Shown here: positions 21,172 to 29,241 of the stretch, one piece after another | Layout: the number at the start of each line of letters is the position of its first letter | Position numbering within the stretch: position 1 is the first letter of the stretch | From: an uncultured Clostridium sp. | GTDB lineage: Bacteria > Bacillota > Clostridia > TANB77 > CAG-508 | Reading direction: 5' to 3' | NCBI GenBank assembly: GCA_945865665.1 | Contig: CAMBEE010000003.1 | Coordinates: forward strand, 75,379 to 139,378 | Length of the DNA stretch: 64,000 bases | The notes under the pieces: generated by a model | What the model was told of the DNA's origin: nothing | The model's database searches: none | What the model saw: the letters and a program-made list of their open reading frames with translations, nothing else | Program-made: the position numbers and the translations under genes

Positions 21172-21329
21172 GTGAACCAATGGGGACGTTCTTAAAATGG
21201 TTGTGAACCAATGGGGACGTTCTTAGATTGGTTGAAAAATAAAATAAAAATAAAAAATTAAAATTTCAACCAATCTAAGAACGTCCCCATTGGTTCACAA
21301 CCATTTTAAGAACGTCCCCATTGGTTCAC
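21172..21329. repeat. 158-bp perfect palindromic element (copy A of the CCAATGGGGACGTTCTTA family) filling the pflB-pflA intercistronic gap.
   Basis: Each arm holds two direct copies of GTGAACCAATGGGGACGTTCTTA. Left arm 21172-21236 is the exact reverse complement of right arm 21265-21329. About 27-nt A/T loop. Confidence 0.8.
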
Positions 21330-25330: not shown

Positions 25331-26260
25331 TTGGAATTTAAGCATAAACCTGTAATGTTAGAAGAATGCATATGTGGGTTGAATATTAAACCTGATGGAA
25401 TATATGTTGATGGAACTCTTGGAGGAGCAGGACATAGCAGAGAAATAGTAAAAAGATTATCAAAAGAAGGATTACTAATTGGAATAGATAGAGATGAAGA
25501 CGCTCTAAAAGCAGCAAAAGAAAACTTAAAGGAATTCCGAAATGTAAAATTCGTTAAAGATAATCATGACAATATAAAGCAAATTTTAGAAGACATCGGA
25601 ATAGAAAAAGTTGATGGAATCTTACTTGATTTAGGTGTTTCTTCATATCAATTAGATGAAAGAAATAGAGGATTCAGTTATCTAGGTGAAAATGAACTTG
25701 ATATGAGGATGGATAAAAATCAGGAATTATCTGCGAAAAATGTTGTAAATGAGTATCCAGAAGAAAAACTTGCAAATATCATATATGAATATGGTGAAGA
25801 AAGATTTTCAAGACAAATAGCCAGAAACATATGCGAATATCGAAAAGAACATTTAATTAATACTACAAAACAATTAGTAGAAATAATAGAAAAATCAATT
25901 CCAAAATCAAAACAAAATGATGGACATCCTGCAAAAAGGACATTCCAGGCAATTAGAATTGAAGTAAATGACGAAATTAAACCATTATATAATACAGTAA
26001 AAGATTGCATAGATTGCTTAAAACCACAAGGAAGATTATGTATTATAACATTTCATTCTTTGGAAGATAGAGCTGTTAAAAATGCAATGTTAGATGCAAA
26101 AGGGAAATGCACTTGTCCACCTGATTTACCATATTGTGTATGTGGTGCAAAATCACTTGGAAAAGTAATTACTAGAAAACCAATTGTAGCTACGAAAGAA
26201 GAACAGGAAGAAAATAGCAGAAGCAAAAGTGCAAAACTTAGAATTTTTGAAAAGGAATAA
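25331..26260 (+). CDS. rsmH: 16S rRNA (cytosine1402-N4)-methyltransferase RsmH (MraW).
   Basis: [12 protein letters not shown]...[15 protein letters not shown]-binding motif. TTG start with RBS AAGAGGTG. Confidence 0.85.
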
Positions 26261-26347: not shown

Positions 26348-26857
26348 ATGGCACAAGCAAAGTATCAATATGGAACTAGCCCTAGAAAGTTAGAACCAGA
26401 TTATACTAGAAAAACAAGTCAAAGACCAAAAAGAAAACCATTAAAAGTTGTCAAAGAATTGCCTAGACAACAAATACAAATTTCTAAAGAACAACGTAAA
26501 AAACAAATGAAAACAACAGTTACAGTTGTTGGGTTATTTTTGTTGTTATTAACCATAAGTTGTAGAAACTCTCAAATAGATAGACAATTTGACCAAATTC
26601 AAGATCAAAAGAAACAGCTGGCTGCTTTGCAAAAAGAGAATGAGCAATTAAAAGTTAGTATTGAAAATAGTGTAAATATTAGCAATATTGAAAAGGTTGC
26701 TAAAGAAGAATTGGGAATGCAAAAATTAAGTGGTAAACAAACAGTATATGTTACTTTACCTAAAAAAGATTATGTTGAATCTGCTTCAGAAAAAGTTGTT
26801 ATTGAAAAAAGTAAAACTTGGTGGGAAAAAGTTGCAGATAAAATTTTGAATTTTTGA
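26348..26857 (+). CDS. ftsL: Cell division protein FtsL-like (bitopic, coiled-coil).
   Basis: Position in dcw cluster. Single TM TTVTVVGLFLLLLTI followed by coiled-coil QKKQLAALQKENEQLKV. Confidence 0.55.
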   Translation: MAQAKYQYGTSPRKLEPDYTRKTSQRPKRKPLKVVKELPRQQIQISKEQRKKQMKTTVTVVGLFLLLLTISCRNSQIDRQFDQIQDQKKQLAALQKENEQLKVSIENSVNISNIEKVAKEELGMQKLSGKQTVYVTLPKKDYVESASEKVVIEKSKTWWEKVADKILNF

Positions 26858-26947: not shown

Positions 26948-28939
26948 ATGGTGAAAATAAATTTATCAACAAAAAAGAGGATGAGAGTAACACTGTTTAT
27001 AATTTTTTTAATAATCGTATTGTTAATTGGAAGATTAGGATATGTGCAATTAATAGATGGAAAGAAATTATCAAAATTGGCATATGAACAACAAACACTA
27101 GATAGAACAATAAATCCAAAGAGAGGAACTATTTATGATACAACAGGGCAGGTTCTGGCACAAAGTAGTACTGTTGAAACAGTTACTGTGAATCCTGGAA
27201 ATATTGATAAGAATGATAAAGAAAAGGTAGCAAAAAAACTTTCTGATATTTTTGAGTTAGATTATGAAAAAACTTTGAAGAAAGTTTCTAAGAGAAGTTC
27301 TATAGAAACTATTGCTAAAAAGGTTGATAAGGAAAAGACTGATGAACTTAGAAAATGGATGGAAGAGGAGAATATAACAACAGGAATAAACATTGATGAA
27401 GATACAAAAAGATATTATCCTAATAATAATTTAGCATCTCAAATTATAGGATTTTGTGGAAGTGATAATCAAGGACTTGACGGAATTGAAGCAAAATATG
27501 ATAATGTGCTTTCTGGAACAAAAGGTGCAATTAAGAGACATACTGATGCAAAAGGTGGAGAAATAGGTGAAGAGGGTGAAACATATGTTGCAGCTAAAAA
27601 TGGAAATGATGTTGTTCTTACGATAGATATGAATATTCAATCAATTGTAGAAAAATATTTGAAAGAAGCATGTATTGACAATAAGTGTACAGATGGTGGA
27701 AATATTGTTGTTATGAATCCACAAAATGGTGATATTTTAGCGATGGCAACATATCCGAATTATAATTTAAATGAACCATATGCAGCATATACAGATGAAC
27801 TAAAAGGTATCTGGGATACAACAGATCAGGCAGAAAAGACTAAAAGCTTACAGGCTGTTTGGAGAAATAGAGCAATTACAGATACATATGAGCCTGGTTC
27901 AACGTTTAAAACTATTACTGCATCTGCATCTCTTGAGGAGGGGCTAGTTACAGATATAGATAAACAGGGACAATTCTGTTGTACAGGTGGAATTGAAGTT
28001 GCGGGAGTAAGAATAAAATGTTGGAGATATTATAGACCACATGGAGCAGAAAGTTTGAGACAGGCATTAATGAATTCGTGTAACCCAATTTTTATAGGTC
28101 TAGGTCAAAAAATGGGTGTTCACACGTATTATAGCTATTTACAGAAATTTGGTTTATTAGAGAAAACTGGAATTGATTTGCCAGGTGAGGCAGGAAGTAT
28201 ATTTTTAGCTGAAAATAAGGCTGGTCCTGTTGAATTAGCAACAATAAGCTTTGGCCAAAGATTTGAAATTACTCCAATTCAGTTGGTAACAGCTGTTTCT
28301 TCAATAGCAAATGGTGGAAATTTAGTCCAACCAAGAGTGGTTAAATCAATAATTGATAGTGAAACAGGTGAAAGAACAGATATTGAAACAAAAGTTAAAT
28401 CGCAGACAATTTCTAAAGAAACATCGGAAAAAGTTTTAAGTATGATGGAATCTGTTGTTTCAGAAGGTACTGGTAAAAATGCTAAAGTTGCAGGTTATAG
28501 AATTGGTGGAAAGACTGGAACTTCTGAAGATGGTGTAAATACTAATAAATATGTTACTTCATTTTTAGGTGTTGCACCTATTGAAAATCCACAAGTGGTT
28601 TTGCTGGTTACTTTGTACAATCCGACTGGTGAGGGAGGACATCAAGGTGGTGGTGTTGCAGCACCTGTTGGAGGTCAAGTTTTTAGTGAGATTTTGCCTT
28701 ATTTGGAAGTATCACAGGAAAATCAAGATGAGGTTGAACAGGTTGAACAAATTCAGGTTCCTAATGTTGAAGGATTAAGTATTAAAGAGGCGGAAAAAGC
28801 TACTAAAGAAGTGGGGTTGGAAATTAGTGTTCAAAATGATTCAGAAGAACTTGATAGGGAAAATACGGTTATTAAGGAACAGTCTCCAAGAGAAGGTGTT
28901 AGTGTTAATAAAGGTAGTAAAATTTTTGTGGAATTTTAA
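26948..28939 (+). CDS. Class B penicillin-binding protein transpeptidase (FtsI/SpoVD family) with C-terminal PASTA domain.
   Basis: STFK active-site serine motif (GSTFKTIT), SCN (MNSCNP), KTGT (GGKTGT). C-terminal PASTA VPNVEGLSIKEAEKATKEVGLEISV. Confidence 0.8.
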   Translation: MVKINLSTKKRMRVTLFIIFLIIVLLIGRLGYVQLIDGKKLSKLAYEQQTLDRTINPKRGTIYDTTGQVLAQSSTVETVTVNPGNIDKNDKEKVAKKLSDIFELDYEKTLKKVSKRSSIETIAKKVDKEKTDELRKWMEEENITTGINIDEDTKRYYPNNNLASQIIGFCGSDNQGLDGIEAKYDNVLSGTKGAIKRHTDAKGGEIGEEGETYVAAKNGNDVVLTIDMNIQSIVEKYLKEACIDNKCTDGGNIVVMNPQNGDILAMATYPNYNLNEPYAAYTDELKGIWDTTDQAEKTKSLQAVWRNRAITDTYEPGSTFKTITASASLEEGLVTDIDKQGQFCCTGGIEVAGVRIKCWRYYRPHGAESLRQALMNSCNPIFIGLGQKMGVHTYYSYLQKFGLLEKTGIDLPGEAGSIFLAENKAGPVELATISFGQRFEITPIQLVTAVSSIANGGNLVQPRVVKSIIDSETGERTDIETKVKSQTISKETSEKVLSMMESVVSEGTGKNAKVAGYRIGGKTGTSEDGVNTNKYVTSFLGVAPIENPQVVLLVTLYNPTGEGGHQGGGVAAPVGGQVFSEILPYLEVSQENQDEVEQVEQIQVPNVEGLSIKEAEKATKEVGLEISVQNDSEELDRENTVIKEQSPREGVSVNKGSKIFVEF

Positions 28940-29117
28940 ACCAATGGAACCAATGGGGACGTTCTTGAATTGAACCAATGGGGACGTTCTTAAATTGGTT
29001 GAAATTTATAAAATTTAAATATAAATCTTTATTATTAATTTTTCAACCAATTTAAGAACGTCCCCATTGGTTCCCATTGGTTCAATTCAAAAACGTCCCT
29101 ATTGGTTCCATTGGTTC
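28940..29117. repeat. About 178-bp imperfect palindromic element (copy B of the CCAATGGGGACGTTCTTA family) between the PBP stop and murE.
   Basis: Left arm ACCAATGGAACCAATGGGGACGTTCTTGAATTGAACCAATGGGGACGTTCTTAAATTGGTTGAAA. Right arm is the reverse complement with an extra degenerate unit. AT-rich ~38-nt loop. Confidence 0.75.
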
Positions 29118-29241
29118 AAAAATATTAGTACAAAATTCTCAAAAAACTCTATACAAAAAGCAAAAATAGTTATATAATGTAACCAAAATTATGAGCAAAA
29201 ATTTGGTCATAAAACATATTAAAATGAAGGGATGATTCTAA

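Follow-up and report, generated by a model that had tools for sequence, protein, structure and literature searches.

Small palindromic repeats of the REP/BIME/REPIN type in Proteobacteria consist of a short palindromic unit, lie outside genes and often within operons, and are served by RAYT, an IS200-like HUH transposase. REPINs are built from inverted REP doublets around a less conserved spacer, and REPs also occur as singlets and in ordered tandem clusters (PMC3116915). In E. coli, 260 of 496 REPs are located 15 nt or less from a stop codon, where ribosomes stall and the upstream gene is translated less, according to the summary given in PMC12306157. Group 1 RAYTs have been reported in Clostridia (PMC5581495). 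Correia elements (CREE) of Neisseria and the enterobacterial ERIC/IRU elements are hairpins of 100-190 nt that are polymorphic among strains, lie beside or between genes and are co-transcribed with them. The long RNA duplexes of such elements are said, after De Gregorio et al., to be RNase III substrates. BOX elements of Streptococcus pneumoniae are modular and intergenic, with internal modules that are arranged in tandem and vary in number and terminal ones whose pairing gives a hairpin, and their mobiliser is not known. To our knowledge, REP/RAYT-type systems in Gram-positive bacteria have barely been characterised, and in the uncultured gut Clostridium lineage considered here no family of small palindromic repeats had been described before.

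The stretch of DNA analysed here (the window, 64,000 nt, G+C about 28%) carries a dcw cluster in which the spacer between a gene for a class B penicillin-binding protein (PBP) and murE is occupied by a palindrome, copy B. A second palindrome, copy A, lies between pflB and pflA. Copy B is probably a non-autonomous interspersed palindromic repeat that was inserted recently, is polymorphic among strains and resembles REP, BIME and REPIN elements, and it looks like tolerated selfish DNA rather than a dedicated regulator. The features of the region are the following.

21172-21329, no strand assigned: copy A, same family, with perfect 66-nt arms, two full 31-nt units in each arm and a 26-nt A+T loop
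24412-24837: mraZ
25331-26260: rsmH
26348-26857: ftsL
26948-28939, plus strand: SpoVD/FtsI-type class B PBP, 663 aa (best match TIGR02214 spoVD_pbp with 590.9 bits, below the 688-bit cutoff)
28931-29119, no strand assigned: inserted segment of 189 nt, from the alignment with the empty allele of the closest relative (L119)
28934-29004, plus strand: left arm of copy B, from inverted-repeat and arm alignment
28934-28946, plus strand: partial unit of the left arm, TTTTAAACCAATG
28937-28939, plus strand: stop codon (TAA) of the PBP gene, provided by the element
28947-28971, plus strand: truncated unit of the left arm, GAACCAATGGGGACGTTCTTGAATT
28972-29004, plus strand: full unit of the left arm, GAACCAATGGGGACGTTCTTAAATTGGTTGAAA
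29005-29040, no strand assigned: loop of copy B, TTTATAAAATTTAAATATAAATCTTTATTATTAATT, 36 nt, about 92% A+T
29041-29121, minus strand: right arm of copy B, from inverted-repeat and arm alignment
29041-29073, minus strand: full unit of the right arm
29074-29083, minus strand: 10-nt duplication in the right arm, CCATTGGTTC
29084-29108, minus strand: truncated unit of the right arm, with 2 mismatches
29109-29121, minus strand: partial unit of the right arm, CATTGGTTCAAAA
29150-29178, plus strand: promoter-like TATACA-17-TATAAT, which opens a conserved block of about 100 nt
29242-30717, plus strand: murE, 491 aa (NF001126, 579 bits, above cutoff)
30755-31744: mraY
31759-32868: ftsW/spoVE

Copy B is an imperfect inverted repeat (28934-29121) in a spacer that measures 302 nt in the window. 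It shares with copy A one 30-nt unit, GAACCAAT-GGGGACGTTCTTA-ATTGGTTG. The 18-mer CCAATGGGGACGTTCTTA occurs eight times in the window with up to three mismatches, where 0.02 occurrences are expected; four of these sites fall in copy A (21177-21324), four in copy B (28950-29105) and none elsewhere. This common unit, far above chance, confirms the original prediction that the palindrome between the PBP gene and murE is a second copy of the copy A family, and the left arm with its two units and the A+T-rich loop were also described correctly. The right arm had been credited with an extra degenerate unit. That sequence, GGGACGTTTTTGAA, proved to be the partner of the first unit of the left arm, so that both arms hold two units. 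When the left arm is read against the reverse complement of the right one, both contain, in the same order, a partial RAACCAATG, a 3'-truncated unit and a full unit, and they differ by the 10-nt duplication and three mismatches. The inner arms form a perfect 33-nt pair (28972-29004 with 29041-29073). As RNA, the element is predicted to fold with -106.6 kcal/mol (z = -15.5 against shuffled sequences). The stop codon of the PBP gene lies within the stem: the element had been thought to start right after this codon, whereas the repeat begins at 28934 and the inserted segment at 28931, both before the TAA. The element thus contributes the stop and the two PBP codons before it.

Copy A lies between the stop codon of pflB (21342) and the ribosome-binding site and ATG of pflA (21150), both genes being on the minus strand, and it is predicted to fold with -122.8 kcal/mol (z = -22.4). 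A contig that encodes an identical PflA has a copy A that is one unit shorter beside the pflA ribosome-binding site. Two contigs encoding identical PflA break off within copy A, which indicates that the element disrupts assembly. Such repeats break metagenome assemblies, with several contigs ending inside them, and rewrite the 3' ends of genes.

The comparison with relatives shows that copy B is an insertion and not a native spacer. The relatives of the window's MurE form a dense cloud with 87-99% identity, all from gut, rumen and Hadza metagenomes. In the closest of them the orthologous dcw cluster lacks the element, and the spacer is only 113 nt (L119 and L150, MurE 99% and 97% identical) or 117 nt (L143 and L151, 97% and 96%); a further variant, L147 (98%), has a spacer of 159 nt with an unrelated 46-nt duplication or insert. 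The window and L119 differ by a single clean 189-nt indel, the empty site reading GTG|AAATATTAG and the filled site GTG[GAATTTTAAACC...GGTTCAA]AAATATTAG. Two further filled alleles, L133 and L142, have the same junctions as the window (GTGGAATTTT[A/G]AACC... and ...GGTTCAAAAATATTAGTAC). The C-terminus of the PBP ends in ..VEF* in filled alleles and in ..VKY*, ..VQY* or ..IQY* in empty ones. The exact indel contains no target duplication, and a 2-3-nt duplication (AT/AAT) is possible at this site only if the ancestral codon was GAA. Element-free spacers are also found in lineages with 91-92% MurE identity, where small ORFs or a serine-recombinase element are present instead, and the PBP-murE spacer is a recurrent insertion site. 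A copy of the sequence at the corresponding position in unrelated Clostridia, which would have marked the palindrome as neither mobile nor recent, was clearly not found.

The original prediction also suggested that the imperfect symmetry of copy B, compared with the perfect copy A, reflects an old and decaying family or multiple insertions. The difference in symmetry is real. The inferred age is not, as the element is polymorphic among strains whose MurE proteins are 96-99% identical. Its presence or absence in close strains and the differing unit numbers point to a recent, fast-rearranging insertion, and the asymmetry of the arms is explained by gain and loss of units together with arm-to-arm homogenisation rather than by slow decay. 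The flanking sequences have a mosaic history. The PBP backgrounds of the filled alleles are 88-91% identical to that of the window and those of the empty alleles 96-97%; in the 3' half of the gene, the filled L133 reaches 88% and the empty L119 and the variant L147 96-97%. The allele has thus moved among backgrounds by homologous recombination, and precise loss of copy B in the empty strains is the less likely history. The repeat marks strain-level variation within the essential dcw cluster.

The three filled alleles (window, L133 and L142) differ in their content of sub-units. The left arm of L133 is without the truncated unit, and the outermost partial unit is present in both arms in the window and in the left arm only in L142 and L133. 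Within a strain the two arms share private variants, such as TTGAATT|GAACC in both arms of the window and TTAT|GAACC in both arms of L142. Likewise, in an element of the ftsW-murG spacer of relatives the two arms change together between L127 and L143, and this holds for the arm overlapping the ftsW stop codon too. Such co-variation is concerted evolution. The process known to bring it about, template switching or recombination from one arm of a quasi-palindrome to the other, would have homogenised the arms here and would probably have flipped the loop as well; for homogenisation by template switching, the concept finds support in PMC13100816. The loop of L133 is identical to that of the window and the loop of L142 is its exact reverse complement; the arms of L142 are, however, perfect over 57 nt, which lets an assembler orient the loop arbitrarily, and we therefore regard the flip as unconfirmed. 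Two apparent hybrids of two loci joined at units (L134 and L133:3760-4035) were left out of the evidence, since real recombination and chimeric assembly are indistinguishable there. Quasi-palindrome correction by template switching fits the private variants on both arms, arms that reach into the flanks and the inversion of the loop. It acts after insertion and does not explain a conserved unit at about 20 loci.

The building block of the family is a hairpin of 28-37 nt with the stem (T)T[G/C]AACCAAT / ATTGGTT[G/C]AA and a conserved 13-nt loop, GGGGACGTTCTTA. The stem has a 7-bp core and is longer in many copies (7-13 bp). About 19 further distinct sites carry the unit of the window; they come from human-gut contigs and from MAGs with the label uncultured Clostridium or Clostridia. 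Single units have stems that are extended by compensatory outer pairs (ATATCAACC..GGTTGATAT, GTGAACC..GGTTCAC, TTCAACC..GGTTGAA), tandem full units have a period of 31 nt, and tandem 3'-truncated units have periods of 20, 22 or 25 nt, each ending just past GTTCTT[G/A]. Inverted doublets around a short A+T spacer are also seen, and this paired form folds very stably. The loops of the doublets are A+T-rich and mostly unrelated between copies, a poor fit with simple copying of whole doublets; those of L115 and L136, which are different loci, are about 90% identical, so whole doublets can be copied. No consistent target-site duplication was found across eight other paired copies. Of the 24 listed elements, 14 (11-12 of about 19 distinct sites) overlap a stop codon or lie within 13 nt of one.

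A scan of genome contigs with a 15-mer, which returned 118 stretches, mostly chance matches, gave the first family members as well as the leads from Desulfobacterales, L071 and L081 described below. Viral contigs, plasmids and phages contained no match to the repeat, and neither did the searchable literature. At or above the gathering thresholds of Rfam the whole window has a single tRNA and the element has no match; when the thresholds are relaxed, its only matches are to plant miRNA precursor models of the generic long-hairpin kind, with scores far under those required. The MurE and PflB proteins of the window had no match in an exact look-up. We regard the family as new, with an uncultured low-G+C (about 28%) gut and rumen Clostridium lineage as its host.

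The Clostridium family shares with the REP/BIME/REPIN systems a short palindromic unit in extragenic positions, often within operons; inverted doublets with a less conserved spacer that form a long hairpin, next to singlets and ordered tandem clusters; the lack of a consistent target duplication and the rapid change in copy number; and the location of over half of the sites at about 15 nt or less from a stop codon. On the other hand, the GTAG head that is typical of enterobacterial and pseudomonad REPs is missing: neither GTAG nor CTAC is present at the 5' foot of the unit consensus, T[G/C]AACCAATGGGGACGTTCTTAAATTGGTT[G/C]A. The conserved part of the Clostridium unit is a 13-nt loop on a short stem and not the stem and head, tandem units are 3'-truncated with periods of 20-25 nt, and the host is a Clostridium. 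REP/BIME/REPIN elements are the closest known analogue, while membership is not established. Correia and ERIC/IRU elements are similar in length, strain polymorphism, position and co-transcription. In Correia elements the core is conserved and the target duplication is TA, in contrast to the unrelated loops, the lack of a regular duplication and the free-standing 30-nt units of the Clostridium family. The modular, intergenic architecture of BOX also recurs here; BOX has no sequence relation to the Clostridium repeats, and its modules of 45-59 nt are not one repeated hairpin unit.

Two other classes of repeats were considered and rejected. Integron attC sites are imperfect palindromes of 57-141 nt with R'' RYYYAAC ... 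R' GTTRRRY ends, arranged in cassette arrays of the same orientation. The ends in the window do not fit (TTTAAAC / GTTCAAA in copy B, TGTGAAC / GTTCACC in copy A); some other copies do fit (ATTCAAC / GTTGAAT, L033), but the elements are situated in housekeeping operons and not in cassette arrays. CRISPR was ruled out because the units are inverted rather than direct.

The arrival of copy B can be described in some detail. An element of 189 nt entered a stretch of about 25 nt between the PBP stop codon and the conserved promoter and leader block of murE and took the place of the stop and the two codons before it. An enzyme whose gene lies elsewhere in the genome would mobilise the units in trans, in the form of single-stranded hairpins, and the leading candidate for it is a RAYT/IS200-type HUH transposase. 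In the loci collected, no transposase of any kind could be linked to the family, and a crude regex screen of these loci for the HUH motif of a RAYT/IS200 gene found only spurious off-frame, low-complexity frames.

Several other explanations have to be weighed against such a REP-like insertion. It seems unlikely to us that copy B is a classical MITE of the Correia, RUP or ERIC type, descended by deletion from a DDE insertion sequence and transposing by cut-and-paste, with a short duplication of the target. The length of 100-190 nt, the long terminal inverted repeats, the A+T-rich core and the insertion polymorphism among strains would suit a MITE, as would the loop common to the different loci L115 and L136, and an ancestral GAA codon would allow the PBP junction to be read as a 2-3-nt AT/AAT duplication. 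The other copies, however, lack a consistent target duplication and the internal sequence of most of them is not conserved, while 30-nt units on their own and truncated units in tandem occur often, which a MITE with terminal repeats does not predict. The sole insertion sequence seen nearby, the DDE_Tnp_1 element of L133, has unrelated ends. It was rejected as a parent, although it lies between two elements, because its ends (TTTGACA...) are unrelated and its contig joins two loci. Quite unlikely, in our judgement, is that the units are binding or cleavage sites of a protein that recognises the quasi-palindromic core GGRACGTYCC at the apex of a hairpin or cruciform, with the repeats persisting through a nucleoid, recombination or RNA-binding factor and not by transposition alone. 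In different Firmicutes the loop GGGACGTTC(C)TT does occur on stems of three or four unrelated sequences, and GGACGTTC was found only once outside such hairpins in the approximately 347 kb of Clostridial DNA examined. But no candidate protein is known, presence/absence polymorphism speaks against an essential site, and the sampling of the other families was partly steered by the search pattern itself.

A role selected by the host fares worse. A terminator or attenuator that lowers transcription of murE relative to the PBP gene would account for a very stable hairpin between two co-directional genes, and for copy A, whose neighbours pflB and pflA could plausibly be expressed unequally. We hold this to be very unlikely, as no U-tract follows the hairpin and neither strand has a terminator-like site, the element is absent from most close relatives, the promoter-like block and leader of murE are conserved downstream of it, and the window unit is scattered over unrelated loci. 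The idea of a programmed inverton, in which the arms are recombinase sites and a promoter in the loop flips between the directions of the PBP gene and murE, is extremely improbable. It draws on the loop of L142, which is inverted relative to that of the window and L133 at the same site, and on a promoter-like sequence on the minus strand of copy B, TTGAAA (inner arm)-17-TATATT (loop), that spans the arm-loop junction. The invertible segment of 36 bp is nevertheless far below known inverton lengths, an invertase gene is absent from the neighbourhood, and chance provides -10-like hexamers in A+T-rich loops; given the 57-nt perfect arms of L142 the orientation of its loop may be the assembler's choice, and template switching or arm recombination accounts for a flip without any programme. 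A REP-like insertion remains our preferred reading of copy B.

For the expression of murE, the insertion is expected to have little consequence. The original prediction was that the palindrome may attenuate transcription before murE. This is weakly founded: within 28500-29600, no terminator-like site was found on either strand, and in place of a U-tract the hairpin is followed by AAAAAUAUUAG. The block of about 100 nt with the promoter and the murE leader is kept in every lineage, with or without the element, and from about 25 nt downstream of the element to the ATG of murE the sequence is almost invariant, even where coding identity falls to 85%; the element takes up the one part of the spacer that is free of constraint. 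Hence murE is very likely served by a promoter and leader of its own, and strong attenuation is unlikely. As this block is more conserved than coding sequence, the leader may itself be regulatory. The leader (window 29179-29241) includes a hairpin that shows compensatory changes, TTATGAGC..GGTCATAA in the window versus TTGTAGCC..GACTACAA in L127, and has no match in Rfam.

With the promoter-like block conserved, any effect should concern read-through transcripts and the 3' end of the PBP gene and not the supply of MurE. In a read-through dcw mRNA, the hairpin (about -107 kcal/mol) would enclose the PBP stop codon and could act like a stop-proximal REP. It might serve as a barrier at the 3' end or as an RNase III substrate and so separate the PBP mRNA from that of murE, and it may lower the efficiency of translation termination of the PBP, with murE still served by its own promoter. 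In the manner of Correia elements and stop-proximal REPs, copy B may thus have roles at the RNA level as a 3' barrier, an RNase III target or an impediment to PBP termination.

The conserved loop is also found on other stems. A profile search with the unit gave weak matches, arranged as inverted pairs, between ftsW and murG in relatives (L126-L131:6660-6810, L143:5900-6045), where the unit GGGATTT-AGGGACGTTCCTTA-AAATCCC combines the loop known from the window with another stem and includes the ftsW stop codon TAG. In another uncultured Clostridia MAG (L071), tandem copies of CTGCCAA-TGGGGACGTTCCTTT-TTGGCAG extend over the end of an ORF, and in Marvinbryantia (L081) GAGCCAATGG-GGACGTTC-CCATTGGCTC is part of a longer palindrome. 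Repeats in Desulfobacterales MAGs (L036, L058, L062, L065, L067, L072, L108 and L001) have the module (G)CCAATGGGGACGTTCATAAATAAATAAGTAA, which contains an identical 15-mer, CCAATGGGGACGTTC, of the Clostridial unit. This module also shares with that unit a 5' stutter of partial CCAATGG(GG) copies and a string that provides stops in all three frames, and it adjoins the 3' ends of HicB/HigA-like (toxin-antitoxin-type) and other ORFs. That the loop is conserved while the stems covary suggests recognition of the loop by an enzyme or a binding protein. It is conceivable, if rather unlikely, that there is a wider, undescribed superfamily of hairpins in Firmicutes, and perhaps beyond, with the quasi-palindromic apex GGRACGTYC(C)TT and covarying stems, positioned at or over the stop codons of ordinary genes and supplying them, of which the Desulfobacterales repeats would then be distant relatives. 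In that case a mobilising or binding enzyme would recognise the hairpin loop, unlike the recognition of foot and guide by IS200/RAYT. We rate the pattern of conserved loop and variable stem as a lead and not a result, because the sampling was partly steered by the search pattern; should it hold in complete genomes, it would offer a handle on the recognition and spread of repeats in Gram-positive bacteria.

Some further features of these loci deserve mention. The dcw operon had been described as tightly packed apart from copy B, whereas the ftsW-murG spacer of the window (32869-33149) holds another nested palindrome, a third element in the same cluster. Its outer arms, located at about 32895-32925 and 33100-33140, belong to the family GGAATTAAGGG..CAC..AAAATCCC, and between them lies an inner hairpin, imperfect and about 130 nt long; the corresponding spacer of L120 is only 12 nt. 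At the junction 30717-30755, mraY comes directly after murE with no murF between them, unlike in many dcw clusters.

Other insertions in and near the PBP-murE spacer are diverse. In a lineage with 91% MurE identity (L127-L130:2176-2883) the spacer holds two small ORFs of 67 and 161 aa, the shorter one with an N-terminal methylation motif of the prepilin type and the longer one without a family. A large serine recombinase element (Resolvase, Recombinase, Zn_ribbon_recom) is present in L120-L122, L125 (about 340-2000) and L126 (1-1587), where, in lineages with 91-92% MurE identity, it lies between the main part of the gene for the SpoVD-like PBP and a short ORF with a PASTA domain that immediately precedes murE; it resembles the intervening elements that split sporulation genes. 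At the exact site of copy B, L147 (2070-2135) carries its 46-nt insert between near-direct repeats of 19-20 nt (AATATTAG[T/C]ATAAAATTCC); the insert may represent a footprint, sequence duplicated in tandem or some other small element. The insertion sequence of L133 (1508-3452) encodes a DDE_Tnp_1 transposase of 568 aa, is placed directly after the -10 box of murE (AGTTATATAAT|CTCGAG...) and links the PBP locus to a locus for a MurJ/SpoVB-like flippase, either by rearrangement or by chimeric assembly.

A second palindromic family, GGGATTA[C/A]GGGGCCACCACA.CGAATCCCT, is present in the same MAGs (L060:2070-2175, L139:6070-6165, L073:2135-2165). In two of these loci, L060 (at 2101) and L139, a unit of the window type sits exactly at the apex of the second palindrome (GGGATTA.GGGGCCACCACA..AATCCC).
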